From a virus (lineage: Duplodnaviria; Heunggongvirae; Uroviricota; Caudoviricetes), in IMG/VR virus record IMGVR_UViG_3300028422_001686: a DNA stretch of 64,000 nucleotides, one strand, 5' to 3'. The notes under the pieces were generated by a model. That model did not search any database, was not told the origin of the DNA, and saw only the letters and a list, made by a program, of their open reading frames with translations. The first letter of the stretch is position 1. Each line of letters opens with the position of its first letter. The translations under genes and the position numbers were made by a program. Positions 7,831 through 55,848 of this stretch are shown here, piece after piece.

Positions 7831-8061
7831 CTACATAAACCCTAGAGCGCTTTCTGCAGTTAAAACTCTAGTAGCCCCTCTTATTTCTGTCTCGGTCTTA
7901 CTTTTAGGAATATCTGGGTGTTCAAAAATTTTCCCTAAAATTTTAATTGTTCCGACCTCTGTCACATAACCCTCAGCCCCTATGATGTCACCATAAATTG
8001 ATGACAGTTCTGGGTGCCAATCTGGCCTATGATATACTTCTACTTTATCTGTTGTACTCAT
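7831..8061 (-). CDS. Small baseplate-cluster protein, 76 aa
   Basis: Tightly packed ORF overlapping the end of the hub gene. Confidence 0.5.
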   Translation of the reverse strand: MSTTDKVEVYHRPDWHPELSSIYGDIIGAEGYVTEVGTIKILGKIFEHPDIPKSKTETEIRGATRVLTAESALGFM

Positions 8062-11000
8062 TCATCACCTTTTCTAGGGCCGAGTTTAGTTCAACCCCAT
8101 TAGACAATTCATTTACTATATCTGCAGATGTAACCTTCTTGTTCTTTTTAACTACTTCATTCCAAGCAGCATCTCTAATTTTTTCTTTATCTTTAATATC
8201 ATTTACAATATATCTTTCTTTATCTTCTTTTGAAACTAAGTCTGGAAGAAATTCATCGGAAATAAAATTAGTAATGGCCTTTACGTCTCCAAGAATCTCT
8301 TTTCCAAAAGTAGATACAGCGTCCATGGCAGTATTATTTCTAAAGCCATATAGGCCAGTATACCATGGTTTACCTTTTCTTATTAGTGGCATAAAGCCAA
8401 TGGGTTGCCTAAATTCACACCAATTTGTAATTGGACCAGAAACGTAACTTGCAATAAAGTCAGCACCAAAAATACCAGCAACTTTCCCTACCATACCTGC
8501 CATACCTTTTAAAGCAGGAACAGCCGCACTTGCTGTGGTTAACAGAACTTTTGAGAGAGTTCCTCCAGCAGTAGACATACCAGCAAAGTATGGCGCAGCC
8601 GCTTTTACTCCAGCTCCTAATATAGCCACATTGGCTAAGGTTGACGCTGTTGATAATGCAGAGCTAGTTCCACTCAATGCTCCAGTTAAAGCTCCAGGTA
8701 AAACTTGATCGTTACCTTGATTATATCTTATATCAAATTCTCTCTGACTAGCAAAAGTTGAATAAAATCTAAGATTGTTCCTGATAAAAACAGATGCTAT
8801 ATGTTTTTCTATAGCCTTTATCAACATTCCCTCTGTTGCCTCTGATGGAAAGACAATCATTCTAGGTGTAATTTCTGTTAACCAGCCCTTCTCTGGAGTT
8901 AGTGTTTGAACTACATCTCCAGCTTTAATCGACCCATAGATCCCATTATAGTTATCGTAAATAAACACCACATCTTCAGGTTTAATATTACTTCTTCCTA
9001 GAATTACTAGTTTTCCTGTATATGCTTTTTTTAGTGAATTACATAACGTAGATACTGCATATTTTTGTGGCATATATGGATCGTAGTCTTTGTGTGCGTT
9101 ATGATAAAGGACAGTTTTCTTCTTTATAAAGTTCTTGTTTAAATCATCATCTGCCTTTATATCTCCAGACTTTTCATATGAAGAAAATCCTTCTGATCCA
9201 TCTGCATTAATATTAGACCCCGTATCTGGATGAACAACCTCAATATTATTATATACGTCATCTGTATTTGTCATAATTTCATTCAAGACTATATCGTGCT
9301 CGCTAGTAACAAGATGGTAGTTTCTGAATGGCTTTATACAATCTTTTATATTTGTAATATCTCCTTCAGATGAGTCTGTCTTTAAAGACTTCTTGCTTCT
9401 TCTATCTGACATATCTCCGTATAGGTTCTCAAATATCTGCCTATTTGTATCTTCGTAGAGTGTACCATTGTTATCATTGATTGCCGATAAATAGTTAATG
9501 CCACGGTAGAAGTAAAGCTGGTCTGGGTATCCAAAAAATAACGTGCTTCTATTGTCATAGGGGACGACCCTGCAGATAGTCCCAGGGTGTCTTAATGTTA
9601 ATTCTTGAAGAACATCCCAGATAGTTTGTTCATAAATAACGAAACGTGATCCTTTTATATAATCCTTTATCATTCCTGCAGCTACTGCTGCGCCACCAAT
9701 TAAAAGTATAGGCGTGGCTGTTAAACCTACCGCAACACCAATCGCTCCTGCTACTAATGATGCTGTAGTTCCTAGCCCAATGCCTTTAGCGAAGGATCCA
9801 ACTGTACTGCTTACCCACTCTTTACTGCCTACATCTTTTATGGAGGGAGCAAAGATATTATCCATCATTGGACTACTATCATATCCAAGAAAATTTCCAG
9901 TAAATGGGGCGACATTTCCTAGTACATTTTTCTCTTTTCTTCCGAAGTTCTTTAGTTCTTCAGCACCTAAGAGCAAATCCCCAATTATCTTAGTCGTATT
10001 CTTTCCAGAGAAAGTATACTCTTCCTCTACTCCAACACCTTTTAATTCCTGAACAAGTTCAATTCCATCACCAACGCACACTATCTCTATAACGTCTCCG
10101 CCCCCTACTTTAACGACTCTTCCAGAAAACTCTACACTCAGCTTGTTAGGATTAACATCATATCCTAATCTTAACTGAACCTTAGTTCCTTCTGTAAAGA
10201 TTAGTCCATCACGAGGGTCAGAATTTACTTCTTTCTTTTTATCTTCTTCTTTCTTATTTAGCTCATCGATAGTCTTTGTTTTATCACTATAATAGGATCC
10301 TAAAATATCGTCAGATGTATTTGTCATTCTAATTATAAGTGTTGGTGCTGGACCATCTTCAGGTACAGGCATACGGATATCTACAATAGAGTTTAGGTCA
10401 TAAAAGTCAGCAAAAGATTTCCATAAAGAGGACTGTCCCTTTAACCTTCTACTATGCATATCTCCAAAACTTAGAATACTAGTACTTGTTGCCGGTTCCA
10501 TAAAATACAGCTTAAAGGTTGGCATAGACCTTCTCATTGTATAAGTCGTGTCTGTAAAGTTTTCAATAGATGACCTTAAGACAAAATTTTGTTGATTTGG
10601 ATCTAAAGGCATTTGAACTAACATGTTACCTAGGTCGGTGTCTTTTTTTGCAGCTGCTTCATTGGAAGCAAAAGGCGTCATTAGTGGAGATATCTGCATC
10701 TGAGATGTCGGTTTTAATTTTGCCGTATCAGAAATTACGCTATTGTAATAATTATCAAACACCTCTTGATATTTTTTAGATATACTATTTTGTGCAGAAT
10801 TTACATCTTCCTTATACTCATCATCTTGGTTGTAGTAATAGTAGTCTGGCTGTTCATACTTTCCACTATCATTTTTTGGTAGAAGTAGGTCAGGATAACA
10901 CGAGTCATCAACTACATAGTTATACTGTTTAATATCACTACTGCAACAGGTGTATGGATTTTCCTTTCCAGTTTTATTTTCAGTCTTTATTGATCTAAAA

Positions 11001-12619
11001 AGAAGATCTTGGCCAAAAGAATTAGCAAACTCTCTACACAAAAGAGTCCTATTAGAAAGGTTTATTCTTTCCGTAGACAACTCTTCTAGCTGAGACTCTA
11101 CCCAATCCCTACTTTTTTCAAAAATACCTTGCTCAATGGCTTCATCAATAGTACCTATTCCTAGTGGAGAAGTATTCATTAGCGCGGTGCCTAATGCTTT
11201 TGCGTCTAATTGATCAGGGTAGTTATCTTTAGCTTTACTATACTGAACTGATTTTCCATTCATCTTTATGTTATATCTATCTGAACAAATTTTCATTGCA
11301 GAAAGAATAGAGTTGTTTAGTTCAGAGACAGATCCTTTACCTTCAACCCCAAGTGTTGGATTTGAAGAGACAAGGCTCTCACTTAATTTCACATTAAAAT
11401 TAGAACAAAATGGAAGCCCTGGTATTGTTGTAGACTCCTGACCTTCTATCATGCAACTTAAACATTCATTTGGATCAAAAATACCAGAAGTATTATTTCC
11501 CATATCTACATATGTTTCTTTTGTAGTGTCTGAATAGATTTTATATTTAAGGATACTAATAAGTGGATGACGGATATAAATATTAGAAGATTTTTCCTTA
11601 TCCCTGTAGACCACACTATTCCTGTTAACAGTTTCTAGTGCGTTATTTAGAAGCTCCAGTTCTTCCGATGTCTCTACTGGTTTCTCTCCATCTAACTTTG
11701 CATTAGCAAAAAAAGACAAATTTAAGTCTGTTGTTGAGCCTCCTAAGAATTGAAAAGTAGGAGTTGTATGTCCCTGTAAGGGAATCTTTGCAATATTCAT
11801 TTTTATAGAAGCAGCTAAACTTCTAAGTAATAGGGCGCTTGATTTTATAGTATGTGTTTTTGGAACTAGTATTCTTCTATATCTGTAAGCATAGGCGTTG
11901 CCACTATTATCTCTATCTACACTCCACCCTTGTTTCCACAGCTTTGTTTCACTGTCTGTATCTCCAAGACTTGTATATAGTTTTTCTTCTGGTAGATATT
12001 CTTTAAAAAAAATCTCCATATCATCTGATAGAGTCTCTTTTATTTCATTAATATATCTCCCATCCAGGTAAGTTCCATTTTTAACATACTCATCAAACAA
12101 CCTTCCTGGCTTCTTTGATGGGATGCTTGCTCCATTTGGAGAGAGTTCTTTATAATAAAAGTTTGAAGAATATGGATAGTAATTAAAATAGCTCATTGTC
12201 AATCTAACTGAGATCATCTCAGGTGATTGTGAGTCGAATTGTATATCTACACCATTAACAGCAAAGGCGAGAGAAGACCCTTCTCCGATATTATTACCAA
12301 GAGAGGCTCTTGTTTCTTTTTCTATTTTTTCATTTTCGACATAAACGAATGGGTTTTTTCTTATTTGGATAAGCAAAGGAGCTAGTTGTGAGTTTATCCA
12401 TGAGGTAACTGTCTGCTCTCTTTTAGATAAATAATTTATACCTGTTGCAAACCTTAGGTCAACAAAAACAACAATATCCCTTTTACCTGATTTAACTTTT
12501 GTTGCAATCTGTGAACGAAGAGAAAAGGCACCCGTATTGTAATCATCCTTAACAATCTGGATTCTTTCTGGAGGTATTTCAAAAGTAATATTGTTTATAG
12601 TCAGTAGTGATGAGCTCAT
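8045..12619 (-). CDS. Large baseplate hub protein (gp27/GpD-like domain plus extra domains), 1524 aa
   Basis: GTKVQLRLGYDVNPNKLSVEFSGRVVKV fits the hub v.i.lGY...F.G.V pattern; position after the tape-measure locus. Confidence 0.6.
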   Translation of the reverse strand: MSSSLLTINNITFEIPPERIQIVKDDYNTGAFSLRSQIATKVKSGKRDIVVFVDLRFATGINYLSKREQTVTSWINSQLAPLLIQIRKNPFVYVENEKIEKETRASLGNNIGEGSSLAFAVNGVDIQFDSQSPEMISVRLTMSYFNYYPYSSNFYYKELSPNGASIPSKKPGRLFDEYVKNGTYLDGRYINEIKETLSDDMEIFFKEYLPEEKLYTSLGDTDSETKLWKQGWSVDRDNSGNAYAYRYRRILVPKTHTIKSSALLLRSLAASIKMNIAKIPLQGHTTPTFQFLGGSTTDLNLSFFANAKLDGEKPVETSEELELLNNALETVNRNSVVYRDKEKSSNIYIRHPLISILKYKIYSDTTKETYVDMGNNTSGIFDPNECLSCMIEGQESTTIPGLPFCSNFNVKLSESLVSSNPTLGVEGKGSVSELNNSILSAMKICSDRYNIKMNGKSVQYSKAKDNYPDQLDAKALGTALMNTSPLGIGTIDEAIEQGIFEKSRDWVESQLEELSTERINLSNRTLLCREFANSFGQDLLFRSIKTENKTGKENPYTCCSSDIKQYNYVVDDSCYPDLLLPKNDSGKYEQPDYYYYNQDDEYKEDVNSAQNSISKKYQEVFDNYYNSVISDTAKLKPTSQMQISPLMTPFASNEAAAKKDTDLGNMLVQMPLDPNQQNFVLRSSIENFTDTTYTMRRSMPTFKLYFMEPATSTSILSFGDMHSRRLKGQSSLWKSFADFYDLNSIVDIRMPVPEDGPAPTLIIRMTNTSDDILGSYYSDKTKTIDELNKKEEDKKKEVNSDPRDGLIFTEGTKVQLRLGYDVNPNKLSVEFSGRVVKVGGGDVIEIVCVGDGIELVQELKGVGVEEEYTFSGKNTTKIIGDLLLGAEELKNFGRKEKNVLGNVAPFTGNFLGYDSSPMMDNIFAPSIKDVGSKEWVSSTVGSFAKGIGLGTTASLVAGAIGVAVGLTATPILLIGGAAVAAGMIKDYIKGSRFVIYEQTIWDVLQELTLRHPGTICRVVPYDNRSTLFFGYPDQLYFYRGINYLSAINDNNGTLYEDTNRQIFENLYGDMSDRRSKKSLKTDSSEGDITNIKDCIKPFRNYHLVTSEHDIVLNEIMTNTDDVYNNIEVVHPDTGSNINADGSEGFSSYEKSGDIKADDDLNKNFIKKKTVLYHNAHKDYDPYMPQKYAVSTLCNSLKKAYTGKLVILGRSNIKPEDVVFIYDNYNGIYGSIKAGDVVQTLTPEKGWLTEITPRMIVFPSEATEGMLIKAIEKHIASVFIRNNLRFYSTFASQREFDIRYNQGNDQVLPGALTGALSGTSSALSTASTLANVAILGAGVKAAAPYFAGMSTAGGTLSKVLLTTASAAVPALKGMAGMVGKVAGIFGADFIASYVSGPITNWCEFRQPIGFMPLIRKGKPWYTGLYGFRNNTAMDAVSTFGKEILGDVKAITNFISDEFLPDLVSKEDKERYIVNDIKDKEKIRDAAWNEVVKKNKKVTSADIVNELSNGVELNSALEKVMNEYNR

Positions 12620-15600
12620 TAGTAACCCTTTTTAATTAAATCATCTATAGTATATTTTGACATCGATGATCTGTCATCTACTATTCTAACTCTGGTGTCT
12701 CCCTTGTTTGACATTTTTGTGATAGCAGAACTCTCTTTAGCTCCACCCTTAATAGATATTCTTTTCTTTTCCATTTTAGGTAAATCAAAGACAGTTTTTG
12801 GGTGAGATACAGTGTTTTGTTCTTGTTGAAGCTCATGGTCTCTACCTGTATCTTTTACTACCTCTAGTGTTTTTGCATCTGAATCTGTAAGAGTTGCAGC
12901 AAGACCTATCGCAGCAGCAGGAAGGACACCCCACTTCATGAAACGTGTATTTAACTTTTTAAAGACTTTTCCGGCAGAGTCTTTCATGTTCTGAACTCTT
13001 CCTAATACAGTGGGTTTAACTCTACCTTCTTCAAACATTTTTCTAGAGAAGCCTATAACATCATCTATATTCTCGTCATGAGATCCTATCATTCCCTTAA
13101 AGACTTCATCCGAAGTTATTGAAGCATAATATTCTGCTGTTTTAGAATTAAAACCTTTCCCGACAGACTCAATAATATCAGAAATCTCTTCTACTCTTCC
13201 GCCTTTCCAAGACCTCAATCTAGTCCCAATCTCGGTCCCTGTTTCTCCAAAAACAAGTTTATCAAAAGACCCTCTCATGGCCTCCATTCTTTTATTTACT
13301 GAAAGGTTCTTATTTCTTAATGTATCTAGAATATAATCTGCCTCGTTATTTAATAATGCCGAAGTACTTTGATGTTTTGCCTTTAAGATATTTTCTACGA
13401 ATAAGTGGGAGAGGTTTTCTGTCTTTGCTGCTAGATCTGGACTCATTCCACTCATAACATCCTTAGCCACACCAATGTGAATAGCTTTAAACTCATTTGA
13501 AAAGGATCCGATTGCGCCTTTTTCAAGGTATCTTGCAGAAAGATTTGTTTTTACAGTATCAGACAAGGACATAGATAGAACATCTCTTGGAGCCTTATTT
13601 TTGATAGTAAAAGAAGACATTCTTTTTTGTGCTTCCCAGTAGCTTCTAGACATCTGGGTTTGTTGATTAATAAACCTCTTTATTTCCTCTGATGCATCTG
13701 CTCCTTTAACCATATGTAAGTGCAGGGGGTCTCTGTCAAAGTCGACACCAATCCCTTTTCTAAATAATGACTTTTCTTGTTGGGCCCCAGAAAGATAAAT
13801 CTGATTAGGATCTACATCTTTTGAAAACTCTTCTGCAATTCTGATTTGTGTTGGAACTGATGTGGTGAAGCTTTCAGAAGGCTCCCTAGTCAATATCCCA
13901 TACAGGTCACCCCTCCTCGCTCTTTCAAGACCTTCTTCACCCAGTCTCTCTAATATCTTCTTCTCAGAAACAGCTACAACTGGACCAATAGAGTCATCTA
14001 GATGTCCTGCTGCTTTGGCCAGATCTCTACCAGCCTGATCTAGTCCAGGAAGTGATGAGGACGCTTTTCCGTAAACACTTGTGGAAATTTTAGAACTATA
14101 GAGGTTTGCCTCTGCTGTTTTTATGGCTTCTGCATGAGCTGACAAAAACTTTTCTTTTAAAGTATTTATTCTATCTGTACCTTCACCTTTCATTGCTGCA
14201 GTCAGTAGGTCTTTTGTCGCTCTATCTAGTTTTGCTAAAGATTTTTCTGAACCAATTTGTTTTCCTGTCATGTTAGACAGTGCTTCCTCAGAATAAACTG
14301 GAACCCTACTCAGCCCAGGGATTCTGCCTCCGACATCGACATTTAAAATATTTTTTCCTGTATACTCTAACCTCTTGGTTAAGTCTTGATCAAAAAGGTT
14401 CCTCATTGAAAGTGATTCAATAGATGGCCCAACCATTTTGCTATCTCTCATGGCAGATTCACCCTGTAACAGAGTTGACATCGCCTTATGTATATCTGTT
14501 GCCCCTGCGCGATTTCCATAAATATCAGATAGAGTTTCATTAAGCCCCATTGTAGATATATTTAAAGCAGCTCTTTCTGATAAGGTCCCAAGTCCACCAA
14601 ACCCCATCTGACTAAGATGATAGTCACCAGACGCCATATGTCTGAATAAGGCACCAGAGGCATATTCTTCGCCAACTGCTTTAGTAAGTGATCCTTCTTT
14701 TTCTACAGCCAGCTTAAGTGTATTGATAACTTCTGTGTTAGAAATACTTCCTGCATACTTCCCTTCTACCACACCTAGTCTTTTTAATTCTTCAGGTGTA
14801 GCTCCTGCAGCCTCTAGCTTGTTCACATATGACATATAGGCAGAACTTAGATCACGAGAACTTAATGCATCCTTTGTTCCAATAACTTCATCAACTGCAA
14901 TAGAATGAACACTGCTAAACATTCCTTTTATTTCAGACTTTATTAATTCTTTTTCTGTTGCCAGTCTATCTCTTACTCCAGAAACTTTCTGCCACTCCAT
15001 CTGCTCTAAAATACTTTCTGTCGGAGCTAAAGCCTTTACTACAGGCTTCCCTTTTCCTCCAGTAAAAAACTTTGTTCCAGACTCGATACCATAGTCTGAT
15101 TCCATCTGTATTTTTATCTTTCCATCAATGATAGAAACATTTCTAATTTTATCTTTTACTCCACGTCTAACTTTAAACTTAACTTGATTTCCATTTTCGG
15201 CAATAGCAAGAGATTTATTTTCCATAAAAGTCTTGAGCTCTAAATCTGCAGCCTCTCTTTTTGCAACCATTGAAGCCCAATGCTGTTTTAGCATTTCTGC
15301 CTCTTCAGTTTTTACGCTCCTAGTATAGGTCTTAAAAGCCTCCCTCTCACTTCTTCTATAGGTACTTCTTTTGTCTCTTAATGACCCTATAAGATCTAAG
15401 TCTGTATCAACTCCACCGGGTCTAGCCATGGCAGTAAATAGATCGTCTCTATTCATTCCTGTCGCTAACTCTAAATTTTTAAACATTATTTCAGAGCCTA
15501 TAGTCCCCGCATCTTTTACCTTGAAACTATAAGTATTCATATTGTTTTTAATGCGAACACCTCTTGCTAATCTTTGATTAAAAAGGATTTCTTCATCAGC

Positions 15601-16722
15601 GATTTCACCATAATCCTTCCCCATTAATGAAAGGACGTTTTCTAAGTCTGACTTCTCTGAGACAACGAATGTATTCATCTGTCCAATAGTATCAGAAAGC
15701 TCTCCTCCCCACTTTATGGGAGAATGTAGTCCAGATATTTGACTTTGTCTTACAAGCTGATATGATGATGAAGAGATCTCCGCTCCTGGTAGCCCAGAGG
15801 AGATTACCGATTCTGGAAGATTGACTACTCCTGCTGCCATTTGAGAGGCTGAACCTCCAGCCATTCCTGGGATTCTCTGCATTATATCTTTAGTCTTTAA
15901 AAGCCTTCCTTGTGTGCCAAGATCACTAAATGGATCTACAACAGCTTGATTAGCTCTCATCTTTGCTAAAGCTGGATTCTTTTGAGCTGAATCAAAAAAG
16001 ATTCCGGTAGAGTCTTCATATAGGGCAGCCTTCATTCCTGTATCTAATATCTCTTTTGGGGTCGTTTTGCCAGCAATGATCTGAGATAAGGAGTCTCTGT
16101 ATCTCTTAACTAAAGAGACATCTATTCCTTCTACTGCACCGGTTGCTGAGTCTGACAACACTGACCTTACAACATAACCTCTACCTAGATCTTTCCCTAA
16201 GGCCACCTTTCCTTCACCGGAAATTAAAGGAATATCAAACTTTTGCTTCTGCCCATCAATCAATGCCTGAACGGTAACGCCTCTAACATCAGAACCTTTC
16301 ATTCTCCCTATAAACTCTAGAGATCCTCTATCTGCGATACTTTCTAATCTTTCAGAGAAAGATGTTAGTTCTTGCATAAAAGCAGCTGATCTGCCACTAT
16401 AACCACTATAACTCCCCAAGCTTTGATTTAAAGAATTCAATGACCCAAAGGTTTTTGATTCCACAAACCTTCCTGCAGGATTAAAATTGCTTAAAAAAGA
16501 TGTAAAGTCTTGTGACGCAGACGTCGCTACGGAAGATACTTGTTTTGAGAATGATCCTGCTGCAGCTAAATTTTTAGATAAACTATGGTTCCTAAAAGGA
16601 TTTTTATTGATGCTCTCTCTGGCTGTAACATAGGCAGATGCTAATCCACCTGCAACTAATGCTCCACGCCCCATTACTGATGCCCAGTCATGCTTATCTT
16701 TAAATTCTATGTTTTCAATCAT
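12619..16722 (-). CDS. Putative virion-associated single-chain two-barrel RNA polymerase, 1367 aa
   Basis: In order: YGEIADEEILFNQR (cf. beta GYNFEDSILVSER), GTKFFTGGKGKPVV with K551/K559 eight apart (cf. beta GDKMAGRHGNKGVI), GILTREP (cf. beta' LNRAP), GVDFDRDPLHLH (cf. NADFDGDQMAVH). Confidence 0.7.
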   Translation of the reverse strand: MIENIEFKDKHDWASVMGRGALVAGGLASAYVTARESINKNPFRNHSLSKNLAAAGSFSKQVSSVATSASQDFTSFLSNFNPAGRFVESKTFGSLNSLNQSLGSYSGYSGRSAAFMQELTSFSERLESIADRGSLEFIGRMKGSDVRGVTVQALIDGQKQKFDIPLISGEGKVALGKDLGRGYVVRSVLSDSATGAVEGIDVSLVKRYRDSLSQIIAGKTTPKEILDTGMKAALYEDSTGIFFDSAQKNPALAKMRANQAVVDPFSDLGTQGRLLKTKDIMQRIPGMAGGSASQMAAGVVNLPESVISSGLPGAEISSSSYQLVRQSQISGLHSPIKWGGELSDTIGQMNTFVVSEKSDLENVLSLMGKDYGEIADEEILFNQRLARGVRIKNNMNTYSFKVKDAGTIGSEIMFKNLELATGMNRDDLFTAMARPGGVDTDLDLIGSLRDKRSTYRRSEREAFKTYTRSVKTEEAEMLKQHWASMVAKREAADLELKTFMENKSLAIAENGNQVKFKVRRGVKDKIRNVSIIDGKIKIQMESDYGIESGTKFFTGGKGKPVVKALAPTESILEQMEWQKVSGVRDRLATEKELIKSEIKGMFSSVHSIAVDEVIGTKDALSSRDLSSAYMSYVNKLEAAGATPEELKRLGVVEGKYAGSISNTEVINTLKLAVEKEGSLTKAVGEEYASGALFRHMASGDYHLSQMGFGGLGTLSERAALNISTMGLNETLSDIYGNRAGATDIHKAMSTLLQGESAMRDSKMVGPSIESLSMRNLFDQDLTKRLEYTGKNILNVDVGGRIPGLSRVPVYSEEALSNMTGKQIGSEKSLAKLDRATKDLLTAAMKGEGTDRINTLKEKFLSAHAEAIKTAEANLYSSKISTSVYGKASSSLPGLDQAGRDLAKAAGHLDDSIGPVVAVSEKKILERLGEEGLERARRGDLYGILTREPSESFTTSVPTQIRIAEEFSKDVDPNQIYLSGAQQEKSLFRKGIGVDFDRDPLHLHMVKGADASEEIKRFINQQTQMSRSYWEAQKRMSSFTIKNKAPRDVLSMSLSDTVKTNLSARYLEKGAIGSFSNEFKAIHIGVAKDVMSGMSPDLAAKTENLSHLFVENILKAKHQSTSALLNNEADYILDTLRNKNLSVNKRMEAMRGSFDKLVFGETGTEIGTRLRSWKGGRVEEISDIIESVGKGFNSKTAEYYASITSDEVFKGMIGSHDENIDDVIGFSRKMFEEGRVKPTVLGRVQNMKDSAGKVFKKLNTRFMKWGVLPAAAIGLAATLTDSDAKTLEVVKDTGRDHELQQEQNTVSHPKTVFDLPKMEKKRISIKGGAKESSAITKMSNKGDTRVRIVDDRSSMSKYTIDDLIKKGY

Positions 16723-19700
16723 GATAATCTCTTAAGGTCACGGAGGTAGCTTTTTACTTCTTCCTCTCTTGATTGACTTAGGTCTAAACTCGTAGAGTCC
16801 TTCTCTGAATTATATACTGTAATTGTAGGGTTTTCAATACCCATAGATCTTGCGTCCTTGTAAATATCAAGCATATCTGTTTCAACAGGAGCTGCAGCAG
16901 TCTCCATTAACTCATCGAGAGCTTGCTTAACATACGGTTTTCTTTCTAGTAAGTTAACCCTGTCTTCCCACAAATCATATTCGTGAAAGTCTCTACCTGT
17001 GTCGACCAGATATTGAAGTTGGATATCATCCATTTTTATTCTTGGGTCCCATCCAAGCCAATCATCTTTCGGTAATATGCTGGATGTCGTAGCCTCTAAA
17101 GCCCTAGAACTTCTCTCGTTAATTAAAAGGCTTTTTCTAGTTTCTATTTCTTTAATTTCTTTACTTCGACCTTCACTCTCTTCTTGAAGGCTTAGCTCTT
17201 CAAGTCTCTTTCTGTCCCATTGTGCAACATATATTTCTGCCATTTCTGGTGAAGTAAGTGAAAGAATCTCTCCTTTCTCTTCTTCTGTAGCGTCTAAAAA
17301 TCTTTCAAAATATGGTTTTTCATGTTTGGGTATAATGTATTTTAGGTTTTCTCTGTCAGAGTATGGATCAACTCCAGTCATGGTTCTTCTAGACATGAAG
17401 TTAAACTTATTTGCGGAACGCTTATCTCCAGATGCGATAGCCTCTTGTTCAAGTTTTTTATATTTTGCATATTCTAGTCTATCAAAAGCATTTAATATCT
17501 TTTCTCTCTCACTCTTTTCAGTTAGCTCTACACCATCAGCCACATCTTGAGCTGCTAAAGCAACTGCTGGTGCCGCAAAACTCTCTATTGGACTCATCCA
17601 ATCCCTAAAACTTTTAGAGACTTTTTCTCTTCTATATTCACTTACTGCAGAATAAGAAGGAAGAAAGGATGAAGCAGGAGAGAATGGAGTTAGCCTATCA
17701 ATTGGGTTAGATTTTAATGTTTCAGTAAAAACCTTTGCATATGTTCCAATGAAGCTGTCATCAGCCTCCAAGAACTCCTTTTTCTCTAGCTTAGACTCTA
17801 GCTGTTTATTTATTGTATCAACCGCATTCTTTTCCTCTTCAGACAATGCTGTTTTAAATATCTCATTTCTTGTATCTCTAAATTCATGTGAGTACGGAGC
17901 TAGGTCCGCCAAAATTCGATACCTATGTACTAGCGAATATTCTTCTGGATCAACCCCTTTAACATCTTTAAATCGAGAAGCATAACCTTCTCCTGGTAGT
18001 CGATATCCTGCATCTAGAATTCTATGATAAGGTGACCCCTCTTGAAAGTTAGTAAAGTACTCTTCACCTGGCATCCAAGATGGCATAGTATTTCTTATCT
18101 CATTTATCCTTTGCTCGAAATAAGATTCATGACCAAGAAGACGTCTGTATCCTTCTGTTAACCCAGCTGCACCACCTAGGTTTAAATCTGCATACTGTCT
18201 TCTTATTCCAAATAAGTCCTTAGATCTTTGAAGGTATGGTTCTCCCAAAAATAAGTCATGAGACCCTGTTAATCTCTCTTTCATTGTTTTGGCTGCAAGA
18301 CCCCTAAGACCTGCTGCTTCAGTAATGGCATCCCATGTCCGATGCATATACCCTTTAAACGAATATGGGTTGACTGGAGCAGGTGCACCAATTCCACCTA
18401 ATTCCTCAACTGGAGCTATTTTTGGATTCTCAGTTATTCGGTCTTTACTCCACTGATCCGTATGCATATATGCAGGTGGTTTAATAACCCTTCCAACAGT
18501 AGCCTCATAAAGAGTTGACAACATACCAAATCCAGCACCAGAACTACCTGCTACAGGGAAGGGACTAGTGTTGTACGTCTTCTCTTCTTTCCAGTAGGGA
18601 TTAACAAAACTTTTATATGCCTCTTCAAACGGATTAACTTCTATTGAGGGATCTAACTTACTGTCAGGCTTATCAATTAGTCTTCGATACCAGTTAGGTC
18701 TGTAGTACATAATCTGGCCACCCTTAAATGGGCCAGCATTAAACTCCCACCATCTACCCTTTCTAATTGCAACGTCTTTCTCTCCACTGTACTCTTTTTT
18801 TAATTCATCATAACTTTCACTAGAACCTATTCCAGTAAGTAAGAATGGGAGAGCTAGGGCCGCCCCTATTGTTGCACCAACAATAGAACCTCTTTTTAGT
18901 AGTCCATATTCTTTTTTATAAAGATCTAATGGTATCTTTTTAAACACCCCAGGTAGACTCTTTGTTTCCTGTAGGTTTTTTGCTAGAATCCTACCTCCAT
19001 CGCCAGAAGAGAATTCTTTTGCTGCTCCGTAAGAAGCTGCAGCAAAAAAGCCAGTTAATGCACCACTAAATGCACCGCCTGCAAAAGGCAAAATCCCGGT
19101 TGACCCTGGAGCAGATTCTTCTACGCTTCTTCTTAAAGAAGTTAACCCTAGGATGTCAGAGGTCTTTGCATATGATAAGTGTCCAGCCTTGACTACCTCT
19201 GCAGCGGCTCCAATAAGACCTGATTCACCAATTGCGGTTCCTTCTTCTCCTAAAGACTTAACCATCCAGTTTGCTGCACCTAAGGCAAAACCACCAAGTA
19301 CAACCTTTGGAAACAAATTCATAGCATGAGCTTTAGTTAATCCAAAAAGATTCTGTTCTAAAGCCTTAGCGTTTCCCACACCTAGTGATGGAAAAAAGGA
19401 ACCTAGTTTTTGTGCGGCAGATGTTATCCTTGGTGAGATATCAGGAACAACTTCTTCTAGTGCCCATGCTGGATTATCTAAAAGCTTTAAGTACTTAGTT
19501 AGTGTTTCATGTGCATAGGCACTACCAAATCGTAATGCTTTTGATACCCTGCTATTTCCTCCAGTAACAAGATATTCATATCTTTTTGGAAGGACTTTTC
19601 CTCCAACGTCTAATTCATATGACCTCGTAAACTGAGATAAACTTGCACCAAATTCTGTTACATTTCTTCTTGGAAGAAGGCCTGCATTTTTTAATAGAAG

Positions 19701-21521
19701 AGTTTCTTTTCCTGAATATGTAAGACCATATAGCTTACCTTCTCTGAACTCAATGGAATGGATTCCGCTAGAGAGAAGATCTTTTCTTTTTGTCAGAGAC
19801 TCTATGTATTTTCTGTATGTCTCTGAGCCTTTTTCAGAAATACTATATTTAATTCTAGCAGAAGAATAGACATTTTCTGCAAACATATTCGAGATACCAA
19901 AAACTCGAGGCATCCCTTTCGCCGATGCTTCTAATCTTTTAGCTCCTGAATATAGAATGTCACTAAGGTTGGCTTTTTTTCTTCCAAAGAAACTAGATGG
20001 ATTCTCTACTCCTAGATATTTTAATGAATTAATATCAATGTTGGTTTTCGGATTCCAAGCGTATAGACCACCTGAAACACCCAGTGTACCGATGCCATAT
20101 AGCATACTCGGGTTTATTTTATTTGAATCAAGTCTTTCTTCTGCTTGGCGATATGAATATGTTTGAGATTTAAAACCAGAGCCAAAATCAGACCGACTAT
20201 TTCTTGTCTTACCATACCATCCATGTCTTAACCCTTCTGTATGGAGGTAGTTATCATCCCTTCCAGAAAAGCGTGAGGCGGCTGCACCAAAAATAGCCGT
20301 TGCCCCTACAATGCCAGCAAGAACTCGCTTGTCTTTTATTTTTGAGAACAACTTCTGTTTTGTTCCATCTGTCCCCTGTTTATATAACTTAAAGGCCTTG
20401 TCTACAATCTCTTCTTGAGATATACCAAAGTCTACAATTCTTGCTCCTTGTGAAGAAGCTCCATATAGACTAAATCTCCCCCTCCCTGCAAGAGCATCAA
20501 TTAATTCTTTTTCTGTCCTTACGGCAAGTGTTCCAGACCTTACAAGATGCTTACCTGTTTCTTTTATTGATTCTAAACCTGAAGCGATAGCTCTTGCTTG
20601 AGCTTCTACTTTTAGGTTTAGAGCATTTCTATTCCATTCTTTAGCCCACTTAGCAACATCTTTATTCTTAGCTAAAAATGATTTTACATCTAAATTTGGA
20701 TTTCTTAATGCCTCTAGCCTTTTTACTAGAACTGGAGTTAGCTTATTTTGAATGTCTACATCTTGTACAGCAATATGCCTTTCAGTTTCTCCAACAAAAA
20801 ATTTAGATAAAAAATCTACACTTGTTCCAAGAGCAAGATCTCCTGTTGCAGGAATCAACCCTCTTTTTTGACCAAGAGCATTTAGCGTTTTAGCTATCTC
20901 CATGGAGTCAATAAGTGCTCCACCTTTTCTTGCTTCTTTTCTTATGAGAAGATATCTAGATAGTTGTCTCTCTATATCTTGAGCTCTTGCCTGGGCTGCA
21001 CTTAAGCTCCCAGCTGCAACTTTTCTAGCATCAATGGATCTTTCAGAAGCTTGCTCTGAAACCATTTTCATATACTCTGGAGAAAAAGATACTGGTAGAG
21101 ATGAGAAATTAGATGTTGAGAAGTGCCTTAACTCAAATGGGGCATTATGAATAATAATATTTTTGCCTCTATACCCAGGGGCAGTGAGAATTGACTTGGC
21201 GATACTAGAGGCCTTGTCTTCCTGCAGTACAGAGGAGAAGATTTTCCTTCCACCATAATCAGTAAAGGACTTAAAGTTTGAGGCAATATTTAAATTTGTT
21301 CCTGTCTCTCTATAATAGTCTCTAAGGCCACCGGCCCTTTTATGGAAAGATGAAAACGGTGAATTGTTATCAGTAAATAGGTTTAATTCAAAACGTCTAT
21401 TAGATGGAGTCTGAATACCTAGTTGAAGGATAGACTTCTTTTCTGGAGTAATAGTTCTAGACTCAATATCGAGACCGAATTGATTCTCAAAGAATGAGTG
21501 AATTGGCTGCTTCTTTGCCAT
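16719..21521 (-). CDS. Tape-measure-position protein with N-terminal DEDDh 3'-5' exonuclease domain, 1600 aa
   Basis: Follows the tail chaperones; Gly/Ala-rich helical body with hydrophobic segments. N-terminus has LDIE (D18,E20), IIHNAPFE (H125-E130), IDSMEIAK and HIAVQD (H249,D254). Confidence 0.7.
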   Translation of the reverse strand: MAKKQPIHSFFENQFGLDIESRTITPEKKSILQLGIQTPSNRRFELNLFTDNNSPFSSFHKRAGGLRDYYRETGTNLNIASNFKSFTDYGGRKIFSSVLQEDKASSIAKSILTAPGYRGKNIIIHNAPFELRHFSTSNFSSLPVSFSPEYMKMVSEQASERSIDARKVAAGSLSAAQARAQDIERQLSRYLLIRKEARKGGALIDSMEIAKTLNALGQKRGLIPATGDLALGTSVDFLSKFFVGETERHIAVQDVDIQNKLTPVLVKRLEALRNPNLDVKSFLAKNKDVAKWAKEWNRNALNLKVEAQARAIASGLESIKETGKHLVRSGTLAVRTEKELIDALAGRGRFSLYGASSQGARIVDFGISQEEIVDKAFKLYKQGTDGTKQKLFSKIKDKRVLAGIVGATAIFGAAASRFSGRDDNYLHTEGLRHGWYGKTRNSRSDFGSGFKSQTYSYRQAEERLDSNKINPSMLYGIGTLGVSGGLYAWNPKTNIDINSLKYLGVENPSSFFGRKKANLSDILYSGAKRLEASAKGMPRVFGISNMFAENVYSSARIKYSISEKGSETYRKYIESLTKRKDLLSSGIHSIEFREGKLYGLTYSGKETLLLKNAGLLPRRNVTEFGASLSQFTRSYELDVGGKVLPKRYEYLVTGGNSRVSKALRFGSAYAHETLTKYLKLLDNPAWALEEVVPDISPRITSAAQKLGSFFPSLGVGNAKALEQNLFGLTKAHAMNLFPKVVLGGFALGAANWMVKSLGEEGTAIGESGLIGAAAEVVKAGHLSYAKTSDILGLTSLRRSVEESAPGSTGILPFAGGAFSGALTGFFAAASYGAAKEFSSGDGGRILAKNLQETKSLPGVFKKIPLDLYKKEYGLLKRGSIVGATIGAALALPFLLTGIGSSESYDELKKEYSGEKDVAIRKGRWWEFNAGPFKGGQIMYYRPNWYRRLIDKPDSKLDPSIEVNPFEEAYKSFVNPYWKEEKTYNTSPFPVAGSSGAGFGMLSTLYEATVGRVIKPPAYMHTDQWSKDRITENPKIAPVEELGGIGAPAPVNPYSFKGYMHRTWDAITEAAGLRGLAAKTMKERLTGSHDLFLGEPYLQRSKDLFGIRRQYADLNLGGAAGLTEGYRRLLGHESYFEQRINEIRNTMPSWMPGEEYFTNFQEGSPYHRILDAGYRLPGEGYASRFKDVKGVDPEEYSLVHRYRILADLAPYSHEFRDTRNEIFKTALSEEEKNAVDTINKQLESKLEKKEFLEADDSFIGTYAKVFTETLKSNPIDRLTPFSPASSFLPSYSAVSEYRREKVSKSFRDWMSPIESFAAPAVALAAQDVADGVELTEKSEREKILNAFDRLEYAKYKKLEQEAIASGDKRSANKFNFMSRRTMTGVDPYSDRENLKYIIPKHEKPYFERFLDATEEEKGEILSLTSPEMAEIYVAQWDRKRLEELSLQEESEGRSKEIKEIETRKSLLINERSSRALEATTSSILPKDDWLGWDPRIKMDDIQLQYLVDTGRDFHEYDLWEDRVNLLERKPYVKQALDELMETAAAPVETDMLDIYKDARSMGIENPTITVYNSEKDSTSLDLSQSREEEVKSYLRDLKRLS

Positions 21522-22655: not shown

Positions 22656-23261
22656 TTATTTTATTTTTCTAGCTATAAAAGAATAAGTTTCGTGAACAGG
22701 AACACCAGAGACATTTATTGTTTTCCCTTTTCCAATTATCTCAACGTCCTGAATCGTTTCTTTTACAGCACTATCTGCATTGTAACCATACCCTATTTTA
22801 ATGTTAAATGGTATATGGTTAAAAAAGTTTTCATCACTCTGCACACTTGTCCCCTTAAGTGTATTATCAAACTTCTTAATTTGATTTTCTTTAAAGGCTT
22901 TTGGGTTTGTATATTTTAAAGCCTTGCTTAAATTTGTTCTATTATCATCACTAAAAGTTTCAGAATTTTTATTTGGGTCACTTGATTTATTTTTGCCTAA
23001 ATTTAATGTGTTCCTACTTTTATAGATCTCAATAATAAGCCAGAGATAATTAGGTTCCCTGAAATTGATATCAAAAGATCCCTGAACTATGTGAGTTCCT
23101 TTTGCTAAAAAATCATAGTACTCTGACCCATACCCATATATAGGTGTTTTATTTGCTGACTCAGTATAGTCTATTCTATCTATATCATCAACCCATATAT
23201 CTCCTATATATAGAGAGACTTGTGATCCAGAGAAATATTCGCCATTAATCTCTACGCTCAT
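22656..23261 (-). CDS. Tail tube-fold protein (tube initiator-like paralog), 201 aa
   Basis: YFSGSQVSLY...IDYTESANKTPIYGYG...KGTHIVQGSF parallels the tube protein 24301..24915. Confidence 0.7.
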   Translation of the reverse strand: MSVEINGEYFSGSQVSLYIGDIWVDDIDRIDYTESANKTPIYGYGSEYYDFLAKGTHIVQGSFDINFREPNYLWLIIEIYKSRNTLNLGKNKSSDPNKNSETFSDDNRTNLSKALKYTNPKAFKENQIKKFDNTLKGTSVQSDENFFNHIPFNIKIGYGYNADSAVKETIQDVEIIGKGKTINVSGVPVHETYSFIARKIK

Positions 23262-24214
23262 TAATACAATCCCCTTGAGTTTTGTAGGTATTTTTGTACT
23301 AAATTTTTATCTAATAGTTCGGTGCTAGCTTCAAGTCTACTTGCACGAGTAGTACTGTCGGTATACCTTGAACTTTTTTCCTTTACATTTTTAATGGACT
23401 TTGCTAGTCCTTCTAGCATTTCTGCTTGTGATGAAAACGTCCCTCCAATGTTTACCAAAGGAAGAACAGTCTCCGCATAATAGTTAACTGAGTTATATAA
23501 AACCGGTCTATCTACAGAGATCTCTTGTCCTTCGGTATTTATATCTACATTAATAACGTGCATCACTGAATATTGACCATACTCATTTGCGAATACAAGG
23601 GCAAGGTTAAAAGGTTTTAACTGATCTAAATGAGACATCATTGCTTGAGCATGAGATGTAGCTTCTTTTGAAGAGCTTTTCATTGCAGCATCATTCCCGA
23701 ATAGTCGGATAAACTGAAATAGTTGTGATTCTTCTATTGTATTAAAGACCATAGATCCGGCGACAGTTCTCGCTCCCCTGGTATAGGCTTTTGAGTGAGA
23801 TCTTCCAAGTGTTCTAACAGCATTTTTTTCCCTGAAAGAAGAGTAGCTAAAGGTATGTAAGTTTCCAAGATTGTAGACATTCTCTTGAAAGGACTCTTTG
23901 TTTTTGTTTCCATCAATATCAGAAATGTAATCTGCTCCAGCCGAATATTCTCCTCTGCCAAGCGCAGACTGTTCTTGTGTAAGGAGGCCTGTTCCATCAG
24001 TTCCTATCGACGGAAAACCCCCTATACTTGATTCTGACTGGAGCCTCGTCTTGTTTATGATATTACCATATATATTAAGTGAACTTCTCAGCTCTTCTTG
24101 ATCTTTTTTTCTTTGATCATTAAGTCTTTTTCTTGCATTATCTAAATTGTAATATGCATAGACAGATACATCGGTTCCTGAAAATGTAGTCATTGGCATA
24201 GCTGGTACAGACAT
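23261..24214 (-). CDS. Tail tube-fold protein (paralog with insertion), 317 aa
   Basis: FSGTDVSVY...FSYSSFREKNAVRTLGRSHSKAYTRGARTVAGSMVFN aligns by eye to YSGVDITP...ISYAVNREKAAVYTMGKADPRAFSRGKRAIAGSLIF of the tube. Confidence 0.75.
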   Translation of the reverse strand: MSVPAMPMTTFSGTDVSVYAYYNLDNARKRLNDQRKKDQEELRSSLNIYGNIINKTRLQSESSIGGFPSIGTDGTGLLTQEQSALGRGEYSAGADYISDIDGNKNKESFQENVYNLGNLHTFSYSSFREKNAVRTLGRSHSKAYTRGARTVAGSMVFNTIEESQLFQFIRLFGNDAAMKSSSKEATSHAQAMMSHLDQLKPFNLALVFANEYGQYSVMHVINVDINTEGQEISVDRPVLYNSVNYYAETVLPLVNIGGTFSSQAEMLEGLAKSIKNVKEKSSRYTDSTTRASRLEASTELLDKNLVQKYLQNSRGLY

Positions 24215-24224
24215 TTAAGCTCCT

Positions 24225-24260
24225 AAAAACAGAAAAGGAGAGAGGTTTTACCCTCTCTCC
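24225..24260 (-). terminator. Intrinsic terminator after tail tube gene
   Basis: GGAGAGAGG (24237-45) / CCTCTCTCC (24252-60) 9-bp stem with a T-rich tail on the minus strand. Confidence 0.8.
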
Positions 24261-24300
24261 CAATAATAGTAATCTATTAAGCTTTTTATTGCAAGACTTA

Positions 24301-24915
24301 TTAGTTTTCTATACTTTGTTTGATCTCTTTAAGGCGATCAGAACTAGTAGCGTCATACTCCCATCCTGTTAAAGCTCTTGCTACAAAGCTATATGCTTGC
24401 TCAGTCACAAGATCATCGATAGAAACACCTGAATTTTCATTCAATACTTCTACACCATAGATCTTCATAATTGACTGTGCTCCATATTCGTTTGCAGCAG
24501 CAAGAACGATATCAAATGGAGGAATCTGATCAGCATACCATGGAGTCGATGTCACCTGATTAAAATCAGATGAAGCAGCATTAACTCCTACTGCAGCCTC
24601 AGAATCAAAAAGGCTGTCGGCACTTACACCACTTCTACTTCCAAGACCTGTCTCATCCTTGTCAGCAGAGAACATTGAATTTTTAAAACGATCCAATAGA
24701 GCATGTCTATCAAAAACAATAAAAATCAATGACCCAGCAATCGCTCTTTTCCCTCTTGAGAAAGCGCGAGGATCAGCTTTACCCATTGTGTAAACAGCTG
24801 CTTTTTCTCTGTTTACAGCATAAGAGATAGCTTGAATCTCTCCAATAGGTTGACCTTGAAAAATAGGAGTAATATCTACACCACTGTAATTGTTATAACT
24901 TCTGTAGTTTGACAT
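24301..24915 (-). CDS. Major tail tube protein, 204 aa
   Basis: Directly after the sheath, followed by a terminator; tube-type motifs such as IPPFDIVLAAANEYG. Confidence 0.8.
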   Translation of the reverse strand: MSNYRSYNNYSGVDITPIFQGQPIGEIQAISYAVNREKAAVYTMGKADPRAFSRGKRAIAGSLIFIVFDRHALLDRFKNSMFSADKDETGLGSRSGVSADSLFDSEAAVGVNAASSDFNQVTSTPWYADQIPPFDIVLAAANEYGAQSIMKIYGVEVLNENSGVSIDDLVTEQAYSFVARALTGWEYDATSSDRLKEIKQSIEN

Positions 24916-24927: not shown

Positions 24928-26982
24928 TTAAGCTGCCAAAGATGTGATAATTCTAACTTTTCTCATTTCGAGAGCAGGATAGAATACAAGTTCAACAAGA
25001 GTTTCACCCAAGATTGTTTGAGATCTAGTAGCAGATACTCTAACTTGAAAACGTTGAATTGTTCCGTCTTCTTGAAGAGCTGCCAGTTCTCTTTGGATAC
25101 CTGTTTCCATTGAAGCTCTAGCTACAGCAGTGTTTGGTCCACCGATGTAAGGATTCGCTACAAGTCTTACAGCATCAACACAATCTTTAGTAATTCTCTT
25201 AGTTGTTAAACGTTGATAGTCAGAGTCATTTTTAGCTGCTGTAGCAGCATCAGAAAACCTTAACACTCCGCCTTTTTCTTTAACACTAACATACTTATAC
25301 TTAGACAAAAGATTAAGCTTAGTTTTGCTAATCTTAATTGGAGCTGAAACTCCAGTAAGCTCCTTATTAAGAGGAGAAATCTTACTTGGAAGAGTTGAAA
25401 TAAAACCAGCATAATATGCTGCCATGCTAGCTGCATATCCATATCCAGTTGTATCAATTGGGTTATAGTAAGTCAAATAGAATTGAGCAATACTTATATA
25501 TTTACCAATATCAACTCTGTGTCCATTTCTGTCAGTAATAATGTTAGGGTCGGTTTCTAGATTTGCCCCTGATGGGATAAAACCAGAGTATGTTGCGAAG
25601 AATCCTGGCTCTTGGTTTACTTTACCAGCCAAGAACTTATTGCCAAGAAGACCTGAACCATTAACAATAATTTTTCCATCGCTATCAAGGGTTGGCTCTT
25701 TACCAATCCAAAATGCAATATCTTTTCTAGAACTAGAACGTGGAGGACGAACGCCAATTACACCATCCACTTCATTGTCATAAACTGAAAGCACAAAGCA
25801 AAAATTAGCTAGCTGATAAGCAAAGTTAACTTCTTGAAAATCATCAGAGCTTAGTGCTGACCCATCAATTTTAGTGGTAGCAGAAGCTAAACCAACTGAT
25901 GGATAAATTTCAGCTTGACCATCAAGATTAATGTCCCAAAAATAGAAGAATTCGCCTTCATATTCTTCAACATAAACTTTACCTAAAGCATCACCAGGTG
26001 TTCCAGCAATAGGATATCTTTGACCAGCAGGAATAGCTACGTCACTTGATAGAACAACAGAGTCACCATCAACAACGTTTTTGTCATCAAGATATACATT
26101 TTGTGGAATAATTATATCAATATTTTCACTCTCAAGAGAACGATAGGCTTCATCAAGGGCTTCATAGAGCTCCATTCTTGAAGGATTTAGACCATCAGAA
26201 CCAGAACGAATAGATAATGGTTCAATAGTATAATTAACTTCAATGGCTTCACCATCATTTCCTAGTCCAGCATTAATAGCAAGAGTTCCGTCAACAAAAG
26301 TATATTCTGCTGAGTCAACTAATACGCTATTAATATAAACTGATACAATTGTTGCATTTTCATCAACAGCAACATCAGATCCATTTACATCATCATAGAG
26401 ACCACCATCTAGAACTTTTTCAAATACAAGAGCAGCTGCTTCTGTAAAGGAAACATATTCATCGATATCTTCTCCGCCTGTAAAGGATCCAGATACTACA
26501 ACACTACCAGTGTTCAAAACTTGACCACCAGGATTATTGTCGTAAACGATATTGTCATTAGAATCTTTTACAATTAGCTGTCCAATAGTTCCACCTAAAG
26601 TTGCAGGTGAAGTATATTTGAGCAGATAATTGTCTCCAGCACTAGCGTCTTTTTCCGCTGTCTCAATGAAAGTAGGATTTAACTCTTGATCATCAGTACC
26701 TACTCCATAAAGGATTGCAGATCTTGTATTGATACGATAGAGCATTGTGTTCGTACTTCCGCCAGCTTTAGCCTCATACATCCCTCTAATTAGAGTTCCA
26801 GACTTTCCAAAAGCTTGTTCACTTTCTTGGGCTCTTACAACAGGGATCATCTTTCCAGATGTGCCACTTTCAGATGTACCAAGAACAAGCGTAATTGGAG
26901 CAGATGTGGATTCGCTAATTTGAAGGCCACCGTCCTGAAGTTCACTTACAGACCCGGGGAGGTATTCAAATTTGTCTGACAT
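24928..26982 (-). CDS. Tail sheath protein, 684 aa
   Basis: LVLGTSESG N-terminus; C-terminal YQRLTTKRITKDCVDAVRLVANPYIGGPNTAVARASMETGI is typical of contractile sheaths. Confidence 0.9.
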   Translation of the reverse strand: MSDKFEYLPGSVSELQDGGLQISESTSAPITLVLGTSESGTSGKMIPVVRAQESEQAFGKSGTLIRGMYEAKAGGSTNTMLYRINTRSAILYGVGTDDQELNPTFIETAEKDASAGDNYLLKYTSPATLGGTIGQLIVKDSNDNIVYDNNPGGQVLNTGSVVVSGSFTGGEDIDEYVSFTEAAALVFEKVLDGGLYDDVNGSDVAVDENATIVSVYINSVLVDSAEYTFVDGTLAINAGLGNDGEAIEVNYTIEPLSIRSGSDGLNPSRMELYEALDEAYRSLESENIDIIIPQNVYLDDKNVVDGDSVVLSSDVAIPAGQRYPIAGTPGDALGKVYVEEYEGEFFYFWDINLDGQAEIYPSVGLASATTKIDGSALSSDDFQEVNFAYQLANFCFVLSVYDNEVDGVIGVRPPRSSSRKDIAFWIGKEPTLDSDGKIIVNGSGLLGNKFLAGKVNQEPGFFATYSGFIPSGANLETDPNIITDRNGHRVDIGKYISIAQFYLTYYNPIDTTGYGYAASMAAYYAGFISTLPSKISPLNKELTGVSAPIKISKTKLNLLSKYKYVSVKEKGGVLRFSDAATAAKNDSDYQRLTTKRITKDCVDAVRLVANPYIGGPNTAVARASMETGIQRELAALQEDGTIQRFQVRVSATRSQTILGETLVELVFYPALEMRKVRIITSLAA

Positions 26983-54208: not shown

Positions 54209-54213
54209 GTTAA

Positions 54214-55206: not shown

Positions 55207-55399
55207 TTTTTATCCCCTTTTATAAGAAGTGTTTTTAGGTAATTGTAACATATTGTATTTATATAAGTAAAGTAGAGTGTAAGAAATGAATAAATAAAGT
55301 AAGTATAAATGTTAGTAATTCCTCTTATAGGGGGCGTTTTTTTGAAAAAAATAAAAATTCAACTTTTTGTTTTTAAGGTTTTTGGATTTAGAGAGAAGT

Positions 55400-55534: not shown

Positions 55535-55556
55535 ATCTCATAACTAAGGAGTATTT

Positions 55557-55820: not shown

Positions 55821-55848
55821 TTAGTAGTCCTATAGTAAGGAGGTAGTT

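Follow-up and report, generated by a model that had tools for sequence, protein, structure and literature searches.

The 64,000-nucleotide stretch of DNA analysed here (the window) belongs to IMG/VR virus record IMGVR_UViG_3300028422_001686, the 188,132-bp genome of an uncultured tailed phage that was rated complete by CheckV. An open reading frame on the minus strand of the window encodes a 1367-aa protein, P0001, for which a fold like that of the cellular RNA polymerase core, but in a single chain and with the catalytic residues preserved, is predicted with high confidence on the strength of its structure model; P0001 is most likely a DNA-dependent RNA polymerase. The reading that we favour, and which we regard as reasonably probable, is that this single-chain two-barrel RNA polymerase is incorporated into the virion, accompanies the DNA into the cell and needs no host RNA polymerase to transcribe the first phage genes. 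A phage-encoded enzyme for transcription is thus probably brought into the host along with the genome. The features of P0001 are as follows (window coordinates, with residue numbers of the protein).

12619..16722, minus strand: open frame of the candidate single-chain two-barrel RNA polymerase P0001, 1367 aa
16618..16671, minus strand: conserved Gly/Ala-rich hydrophobic N-terminal segment, aa 18-35; G18, L22 and G25 conserved
14584..16365, minus strand: beta/Rpb2-like half, aa 120-713
15571-15612, minus strand: YGEIADEEILFNQR, aa 371-384, first acidic motif
15589..15600, minus strand: A-D-E-E, aa 375-378, within the first acidic motif
15037..15078, minus strand: GTKFFTGGKGKPVV, aa 549-562, motif of the beta-like barrel that has two lysines, K551 and K559, at a spacing of eight
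13018..14457, minus strand: beta'/Rpb1-like half, aa 756-1235
13708..14082, minus strand: double-psi beta-barrel (DPBB) A, aa 881-1005, which holds the RxP and DFDRD motifs
13879..13887, minus strand: R946-E-P948 motif, 45 residues ahead of the Asp triad
13729..13743, minus strand: D994-F-D-R-D998, putative metal-binding loop
13453..13566, minus strand: candidate bridge helix, aa 1053-1090, with EKGxIGxxSNxFxxIH; long helices, model residues 934-971
13369..13395, minus strand: E-N-I-L-K-A-K-H-Q, aa 1110-1118, which may form the base of a trigger-loop-like element; E1110, K1114 and K1116 invariant
12883..12939, minus strand: conserved hydrophobic C-terminal segment, aa 1262-1280; P1268 and G1273 invariant, A1270 nearly so
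12622..12783, minus strand: C-terminal module ending G-Y, aa 1314-1367, which aligns with the C-terminal end of gp146 of phage 0305phi8-36

The AlphaFold2 model of P0001 aa 120-1260, which was built from an alignment of 44 sequences of one narrow family, had a predicted local distance difference test score (pLDDT) of 85 and a predicted template modelling score (pTM) of 0.84, and was a compact mixed alpha/beta structure rather than a helical rod. When the model was compared with the PDB by use of Foldseek, all of the best 50 matches were RNA polymerase beta' or beta chains, the AR9 non-virion RNA polymerase (nvRNAP), poxvirus Rpo132 or QDE-1, with modest E-values (best 1.5e-4). An exhaustive comparison with 48,161 PDB chains, carried out independently of Foldseek, placed two-barrel RNA polymerases in all of the top 15 positions. 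The closest ESM Atlas models were one-chain proteins that carry both PF00562 (Rpb2_6) and PF00623 (Rpb1_2), with template modelling (TM) scores of 0.46/0.52 over 660 aligned residues. A designed DPBB superposed on aa 881-1005 with a root mean square deviation (rmsd) of 1.9, and a rigid superposition on QDE-1 spanned both barrels (409 residues, rmsd 4.5). The original prediction had proposed a single-chain two-barrel polymerase and had called for a Foldseek comparison with the beta and beta' barrels; the confident model and three independent structure searches bear that proposal out, and the order of the halves, beta-like first and beta'-like second, was likewise supported by the model as proposed. 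The residues K551 and K559 lie within and beside model strands 432-434 and 442-447, and the loop of the Asp triad sits between strands 855-858 and 880-885. Long conserved helices occupy aa 1053-1090 and 1095-1113, and the beta' alignment extends to aa 1235.

Among viral structures in BFVD, the best Foldseek match was a 1423-residue protein of an uncultured phage labelled 'Minor tail protein' (E 3.7e-13) and the second best was ME3_36 of Acinetobacter phage vB_AbaM_ME3 (E 3e-10), which is considered below. Similarity to the model was also seen for large proteins of two cultured Microcystis myophages, MaMV-DC (BFVD entry A0A075BUT7_2, E 9e-7) and Ma-LMM01 (A0A7J4_2, E 0.04); the P0001 family hidden Markov model (HMM) had no match in the MaMV-DC genome.

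All four motifs that the original prediction had placed in this one frame were present within a few bases of where it had put them, and exactly there in the case of DFDRD. Conservation was assessed in an alignment of 35 full-length homologues with pairwise identities of 16-60%, in which only 38 of the 1367 positions were at least 90% identical. Seven of the nine residues named beforehand fall among these 38 positions (K551, K559, R946, P948, D994, D996 and D998; hypergeometric P = 2.5e-10). The two lysines, P948 and the three aspartates were invariant (35/35), R946 was found in 34 of the 35 sequences and the glutamate of REP in 32. The named residue that did not hold up was D376, at which the homologues have E, D, A, P or K; the adjacent E377 was acidic in 34/35, and the A-D-E-E stretch may, as judged from the sequence, be the equivalent of beta E813/D814. 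Short motifs prove little alone, since D.D.D occurs twice and K-x7-K 15 times in the single P0001 sequence; conservation across the 35 homologues is the reason that these motifs are not regarded as chance occurrences. Divergent family members have GDxDGD at the acidic loop, which is the classical polymerase form, and the REP-to-DxDxD spacing of P0001 satisfies the [RK]xPx{20,100}DxDxD filter of PMC10770324 (Supplementary Data 4). Further invariant positions in the family were R717, R784, K1041, S1075, E1110, K1114 and K1116. Two strongly conserved stretches lie C-terminal to the acidic loop: EKGxIGxxSNxFxxIH, where K1068, G1072, S1075 and H1082 are conserved, and ENILKAKHQ, which aligned with VEGLLKTSH of ME3_36. 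The stretch aa 1053-1090 may represent the bridge helix and aa 1110-1118 the base of a trigger-loop-type element.

Sequence searches gave no indication of what P0001 is. A word-index search retrieved three homologues, and an exhaustive profile search of 1.84 billion proteins extended the family to 52 representatives, nearly all of 1350-1600 aa; no source gave any member an informative name. Neither P0001 nor its family profile had a match in Pfam (E up to 1), in PHROGs or among PDB sequences (phmmer, hmmsearch), PF05183, the YonO/RdRP family, had no match to P0001 at E up to 1, and there was no match by tblastn to 50,697 phage records. Scans of viral and genome contigs with the family returned nothing that identifies P0001. 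Outside the modelled region, neither the N-terminal segment at aa 18-35 (Kyte-Doolittle score below 1.5 over 19 residues) nor the C-terminal segment at aa 1262-1280 reached the transmembrane threshold in a Kyte-Doolittle scan, so that neither is a clear helix of that kind; ME3_36 has an N-terminal hydrophobic segment that resembles aa 18-35.

The gene for P0001 lies in a tail module on the minus strand, in which the order is sheath, three tube-like paralogues, two chaperone-sized genes, P0056, P0001, P0057, small baseplate genes and Baseplate_J. The neighbouring genes are listed here.

24928-26982, minus strand: tail sheath
16719..21521, minus strand: upstream giant P0056 (1600 aa), whose stop overlaps the P0001 start (ATGA)
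8045..12619, minus strand: downstream giant P0057 (1524 aa), of the hub/tail-lysin type, whose start overlaps the P0001 stop (TAATG)

The sheath and Baseplate_J genes show that the phage has a contractile tail, as the original prediction of a myophage had it, and P0001 does lie between a giant at the tape-measure position and a hub/lysin giant. By BLASTP, P0056 matched ME3_35 (3e-57) and gp145 of 0305phi8-36 (3e-19), which is a virion protein by mass spectrometry; P0057 matched the 'baseplate hub protein' ME3_37 (4e-31) and the 0305phi8-36 hub/lysin protein gp147 (1.5e-15), as well as PHROG 20474, 'endolysin' (5e-45). It is P0056, and not P0001, that fills the slot directly after the chaperone-sized genes, where a tape measure would be expected. 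Tape-measure identity was considered for P0001 and rejected in view of the globular model and its pTM of 0.84. The earlier expectation that such a protein would be annotated as hypothetical or as a tape measure was apt: its best viral match carries the minor tail label given above, and its 0305phi8-36 counterpart, gp146, is a 'hypothetical tape measure protein'.

Two further observations were made in this module. The N-terminus of P0056 contains motifs that resemble those of DEDDh exonucleases (LDIE, HNAPFE). The three adjacent paralogues that follow the sheath (22656-24915, minus strand; 201, 317 and 204 aa) all matched PHROG 9206, 'major head protein', a label that the equivalent Moorella phage genes also bear; by position they look like tail-tube-type proteins, and the label is probably wrong.

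The same gene order was found on four contigs (20-209 kb) that carry P0001 family members of different branches, and the 4-base overlap of the polymerase gene with the first giant was likewise kept on all four. The flanking giants of these relatives have nuclease (SNase) and wall-degrading domains; by Pfam, SNase is on the first or third giant, and Glyco_hydro_108 and PG_binding_3 are on the third. On two of the four syntenic contigs a homing endonuclease gene is inserted after the polymerase; the polymerase and third-giant pair evidently tolerates separation. The inserted gene, seen between these two in some relatives, is small, lies on the opposite strand and has a weak I-HmuI NUMOD-like match. 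The corresponding positions are given below.

L001:303-5990, L006:4062-10004 and L005:15106-20979: nuclease-bearing flanking giants of relatives
L005:14311-14784, L007:14566-15048 and L008:14431-14913, minus strand: inserted NUMOD-like gene in relatives
L013:7623-15236: gp146 of 0305phi8-36, the middle giant between the tail chaperones and the hub/lysin

The portal protein placed the phage with Moorella phage MTATph1, Bacillus phages 0305phi8-36 and WH1 and Acinetobacter phage ME3, at approximately 30% identity, and the three-giant arrangement is common to these four phages. In 0305phi8-36 the middle giant is gp146 (2537 aa), a virion protein by mass spectrometry; like P0001 it is the middle of three giants and has the same C-terminal module, whereas it has no DxDxD and no polymerase core. 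The similarity between the P0001 family and gp146 was confined to the last ~56 residues, which end in RGY (hhalign E 4.6e-4, probability 33%), and this shared module may dock the middle giant in the tail. The middle giant of MTATph1, CDS0027, had no DxDxD and no meaningful hhalign match to the P0001 family.

In contrast, the middle giant of phage ME3, which infects Acinetobacter baumannii, is related to P0001. ME3_36 (AND75197.1, 1603 aa, 'hypothetical protein') lies between the orthologous giants ME3_35 and ME3_37, is ~240 residues longer than P0001 and contains REP followed 43 residues on by GGDHDQD. It matched the P0001 family profile from barrel A through the KxxH element (hhalign E 2.5e-5, probability 75%). 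This protein was undetected by BLAST, and the family HMM had no match in the ME3 genome; ME3_36 was found solely through structure and hhalign. We conclude that ME3_36 is a distant P0001 homologue at the same slot in a cultured phage.

A whole-genome scan for acidic motifs found one further large protein, P0055, located ~5 kb past the end of the window in a block of early/middle genes and 14 kb into the non-structural block.

Genome 92187-95000 (L003:5188-8001), plus strand: P0055, 937 aa, orphan, with HRDPCLFP and, 60 residues later, DSDGD

Compared with the P0001 family profile, P0055 gave a weak hhalign match (E 0.064) in which the motifs and the KxxIGxxxxxxxxIH that follows them were aligned. 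Its nearest named language-model neighbours were phage RdRP-family clusters at 0.84, which is below 0.9 and serves as a lead only. Homologues were absent from Pfam, the PDB, the phage records searched by tblastn, the word index and the viral contigs, and a single-sequence AlphaFold2 model was unusable (pLDDT 33). On its sequence features, P0055 is a candidate for a second, non-virion two-barrel RNA polymerase. Elsewhere in the genome there was no match to the Rpb1_2 or sigma-70 region 2 profiles (Pfam RNA polymerase models at E up to 10), or to the RdRP profile PF05183 at E up to 10, for which a B. subtilis control genome was positive. The T7-type RNA polymerase profile PF00940 matched nowhere, controls included, and was uninformative.

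The two blocks of the genome, a 77-kb minus-strand structural block and a plus-strand block of ~100 kb, are parted by a divergent junction of 350 bp (55207-55556; genome 78315-78664). The GC skew changes sign at this junction, and the next 9 kb are very AT-rich (25-33% GC) with long intergenic gaps. Direct repeats in 54000-64000 proved to be ribosome-binding regions. A promoter search based on exact 9-mers enriched in intergenic DNA yielded nothing beyond A/T runs and one tRNA-like word; seven copies of GTTCAAATC are present in the genome, all of them intergenic and on the plus strand, and the word resembles the T-arm of tRNA-type genes.

The nearest functional precedent for P0001 is gp96 of phage P23-45, a virion RNA polymerase fused to the tape measure that works with the non-virion RNA polymerase gp64 (PMC10770324; 2024); related structures are PDB 8h2m and 8h2n (P23-45) and 8f5m (P74-26 gp62). 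In gp96 as in P0001, a single-chain two-barrel polymerase is encoded at the tape-measure position of a tail module, RxP precedes a DFDxD loop, and the polypeptide includes hydrophobic segments. Each of the two genomes may encode a further, divergent two-barrel polymerase, and P0001 and P0055 would, if P0055 is real, mirror gp96 and gp64 by analogy. The sequence alignment of P0001 with gp96 was limited to the DxDxD stretch; between two-barrel families only this stretch aligns by sequence (PMC10770324). P0001 is a separate 1367-aa open frame with stops on both sides, whereas gp96 is the head of a 5002-aa tape measure, and the P0001 phage is contractile-tailed and of the 0305phi8-36 group, whereas P23-45 is a Thermus siphophage. 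The P0001 model aligns with N-terminal Rpb1/beta' parts, whereas gp96 is described as clampless; judged from the model, P0001 appears structurally nearer to cellular beta/beta' than to gp96. Activity and packaging have been demonstrated for gp96, whereas for P0001 we infer both.

Cellular beta/beta' (Rpb2/Rpb1) and the one-chain PF00562 and PF00623 fusions of phages and Chloroflexota (ESM Atlas clusters) gave the best structural matches, whether P0001 was compared by halves or as a whole chain. P0001 and the cellular enzyme share the barrel order, the lysine pair, RxP and the Asp triad; unlike it, P0001 is one chain with ~1140 core residues, has no evident accessory subunits and lacks any Pfam RNA polymerase match. 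Other single-chain two-barrel phage RNA polymerases are SPbeta YonO, of ~100 kDa (PMC5467207), and the gp66 protein of phi14:2 (a crAss-like phage), which is packaged in the virion and flanked by other giant virion proteins (10.1101/2020.03.07.982082). Both were absent among the structure matches listed for P0001, and the gp66 phage is podovirus-like whereas the P0001 phage is contractile-tailed. A literature search found no paper in which the P0001 family or ME3_36 is described as a polymerase; the ME3 and Microcystis phages are not in the survey of PMC10770324 (Supplementary Data 4), whose 23 RNA polymerase family alignments were not compared.

In the favoured reading, the incoming nucleotide would meet K551 and K559 of the beta-like N-terminal barrel, the beta'-like C-terminal barrel would bring the RxP motif and the Asp triad that holds the catalytic Mg2+, and the conserved helices after barrel A would serve as bridge helix and trigger-loop base. 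P0001 would be made late, together with its two giant tail neighbours, and would become part of the virion, located in or at the baseplate or the lumen of the tail; released at contraction, it would enter the cell with the DNA and transcribe the first genes without the host polymerase, after which the cytoplasmic candidate P0055 may take over. The two hydrophobic segments might retain P0001 near the entry pore, as Chaban et al. proposed for gp96. We infer packaging, ejection, catalysis, the type of template and the hand-over to a second enzyme, packaging mainly because the occupant of this slot is a virion protein where it has been measured (gp146).

Several points weigh against this reading. 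A compact globular enzyme of 130 kDa has no obvious fit in the tail tube, and the position of the gene does not discriminate between a tail, baseplate or head location. The middle giants of the nearest cultured relatives (gp146, CDS0027) are without DxDxD, so the polymerase is not a constant component of the three-giant module. No shared promoter word was found among the exact 9-mers enriched in intergenic DNA, and the case for P0055 consists only of motifs, the weak hhalign match (E 0.064) and language-model neighbours below 0.9.

Four other explanations were considered. One, which we consider unlikely, is that the two-barrel RNA polymerase is active but, although expressed along with the tail genes, stays out of the virion and works in the cytoplasm, on late genes for instance. 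The predicted fold and the catalytic residues also fit this explanation, and SPbeta YonO is a non-virion single-chain RNA polymerase (PMC5467207); however, P0001 is translationally coupled to two structural giants, its slot is that of a protein which mass spectrometry has detected in virions and whose C-terminal module it shares, the gene order was kept in all relatives examined, and a polymerase made only with late genes would come too late to be of use if it were not taken along into the next cell.

There is a similarly small chance that P0001 is delivered by the virion for a main task other than messenger synthesis, be it genome pulling by transcription, replication priming or the copying of RNA in the manner of QDE-1/RDR2. 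The closest matches of each half are DNA-dependent enzymes, which argues against it; the results do not discriminate between kinds of template or product, and this explanation overlaps the favoured reading rather than excluding it.

The position of P0001, which is that of gp146 and is accompanied by the gp146 C-terminal end, together with the minor tail label of its best viral match, would also suit a tape measure or lumen plug, a structural component of the tail with a polymerase-like fold that has lost catalysis. We consider this quite improbable, since the expected catalytic residues remain invariant in homologues with pairwise identities of 16-60%, in which most of the chain varies, and since the compact mixed alpha/beta model is unlike the long helical rod of a tape measure. 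Least probable of all is that the fold is a prediction artefact and that a different kind of metal-dependent enzyme carries these motifs: the alignment held 44 sequences of one narrow family and the best Foldseek E was 1.5e-4, but three different search methods and libraries concur, the halves match two different RNA polymerase subunits in the correct order, and the designed DPBB lands on exactly the RxP and DxDxD stretch.

A more elaborate form of the favoured reading is put forward tentatively, as a possibility that we would not expect to hold in full. In one branch of the contractile-tailed 0305phi8-36-like phages, the middle one of three ejected giants of the tail lumen may have been swapped for a complete polymerase of the beta/beta' type, with the old C-terminal anchoring module retained. 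Such an enzyme would exit the tube on contraction and, with the two hydrophobic segments as a tether at the entry pore, transcribe the incoming DNA, help to draw the genome in and yield the messenger for the second polymerase; along with the neighbours that bear nuclease modules or degrade the wall, it would make up an injected 'enter, cut, transcribe' cassette.

With a virion RNA polymerase, a phage can begin its programme without the host enzyme. Such an enzyme bears on how the host is taken over, on sensitivity to rifampicin-type inhibitors and on escape from defences that act against early transcription. Tail-associated two-barrel enzymes have so far been demonstrated in only one Thermus siphophage family (2024). 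If the favoured reading is true, the strategy extends to large contractile-tailed phages and exists there as a stand-alone gene, in a family that is invisible to sequence searches, with a distant copy in the cultured A. baumannii phage ME3 in which it would be directly testable. P0001 would also offer a compact beta/beta'-like core of ~1140 residues for studies of minimal RNA polymerases. These findings suggest that the labels 'hypothetical', 'minor tail' and 'tape measure' in large phages conceal more polymerases.

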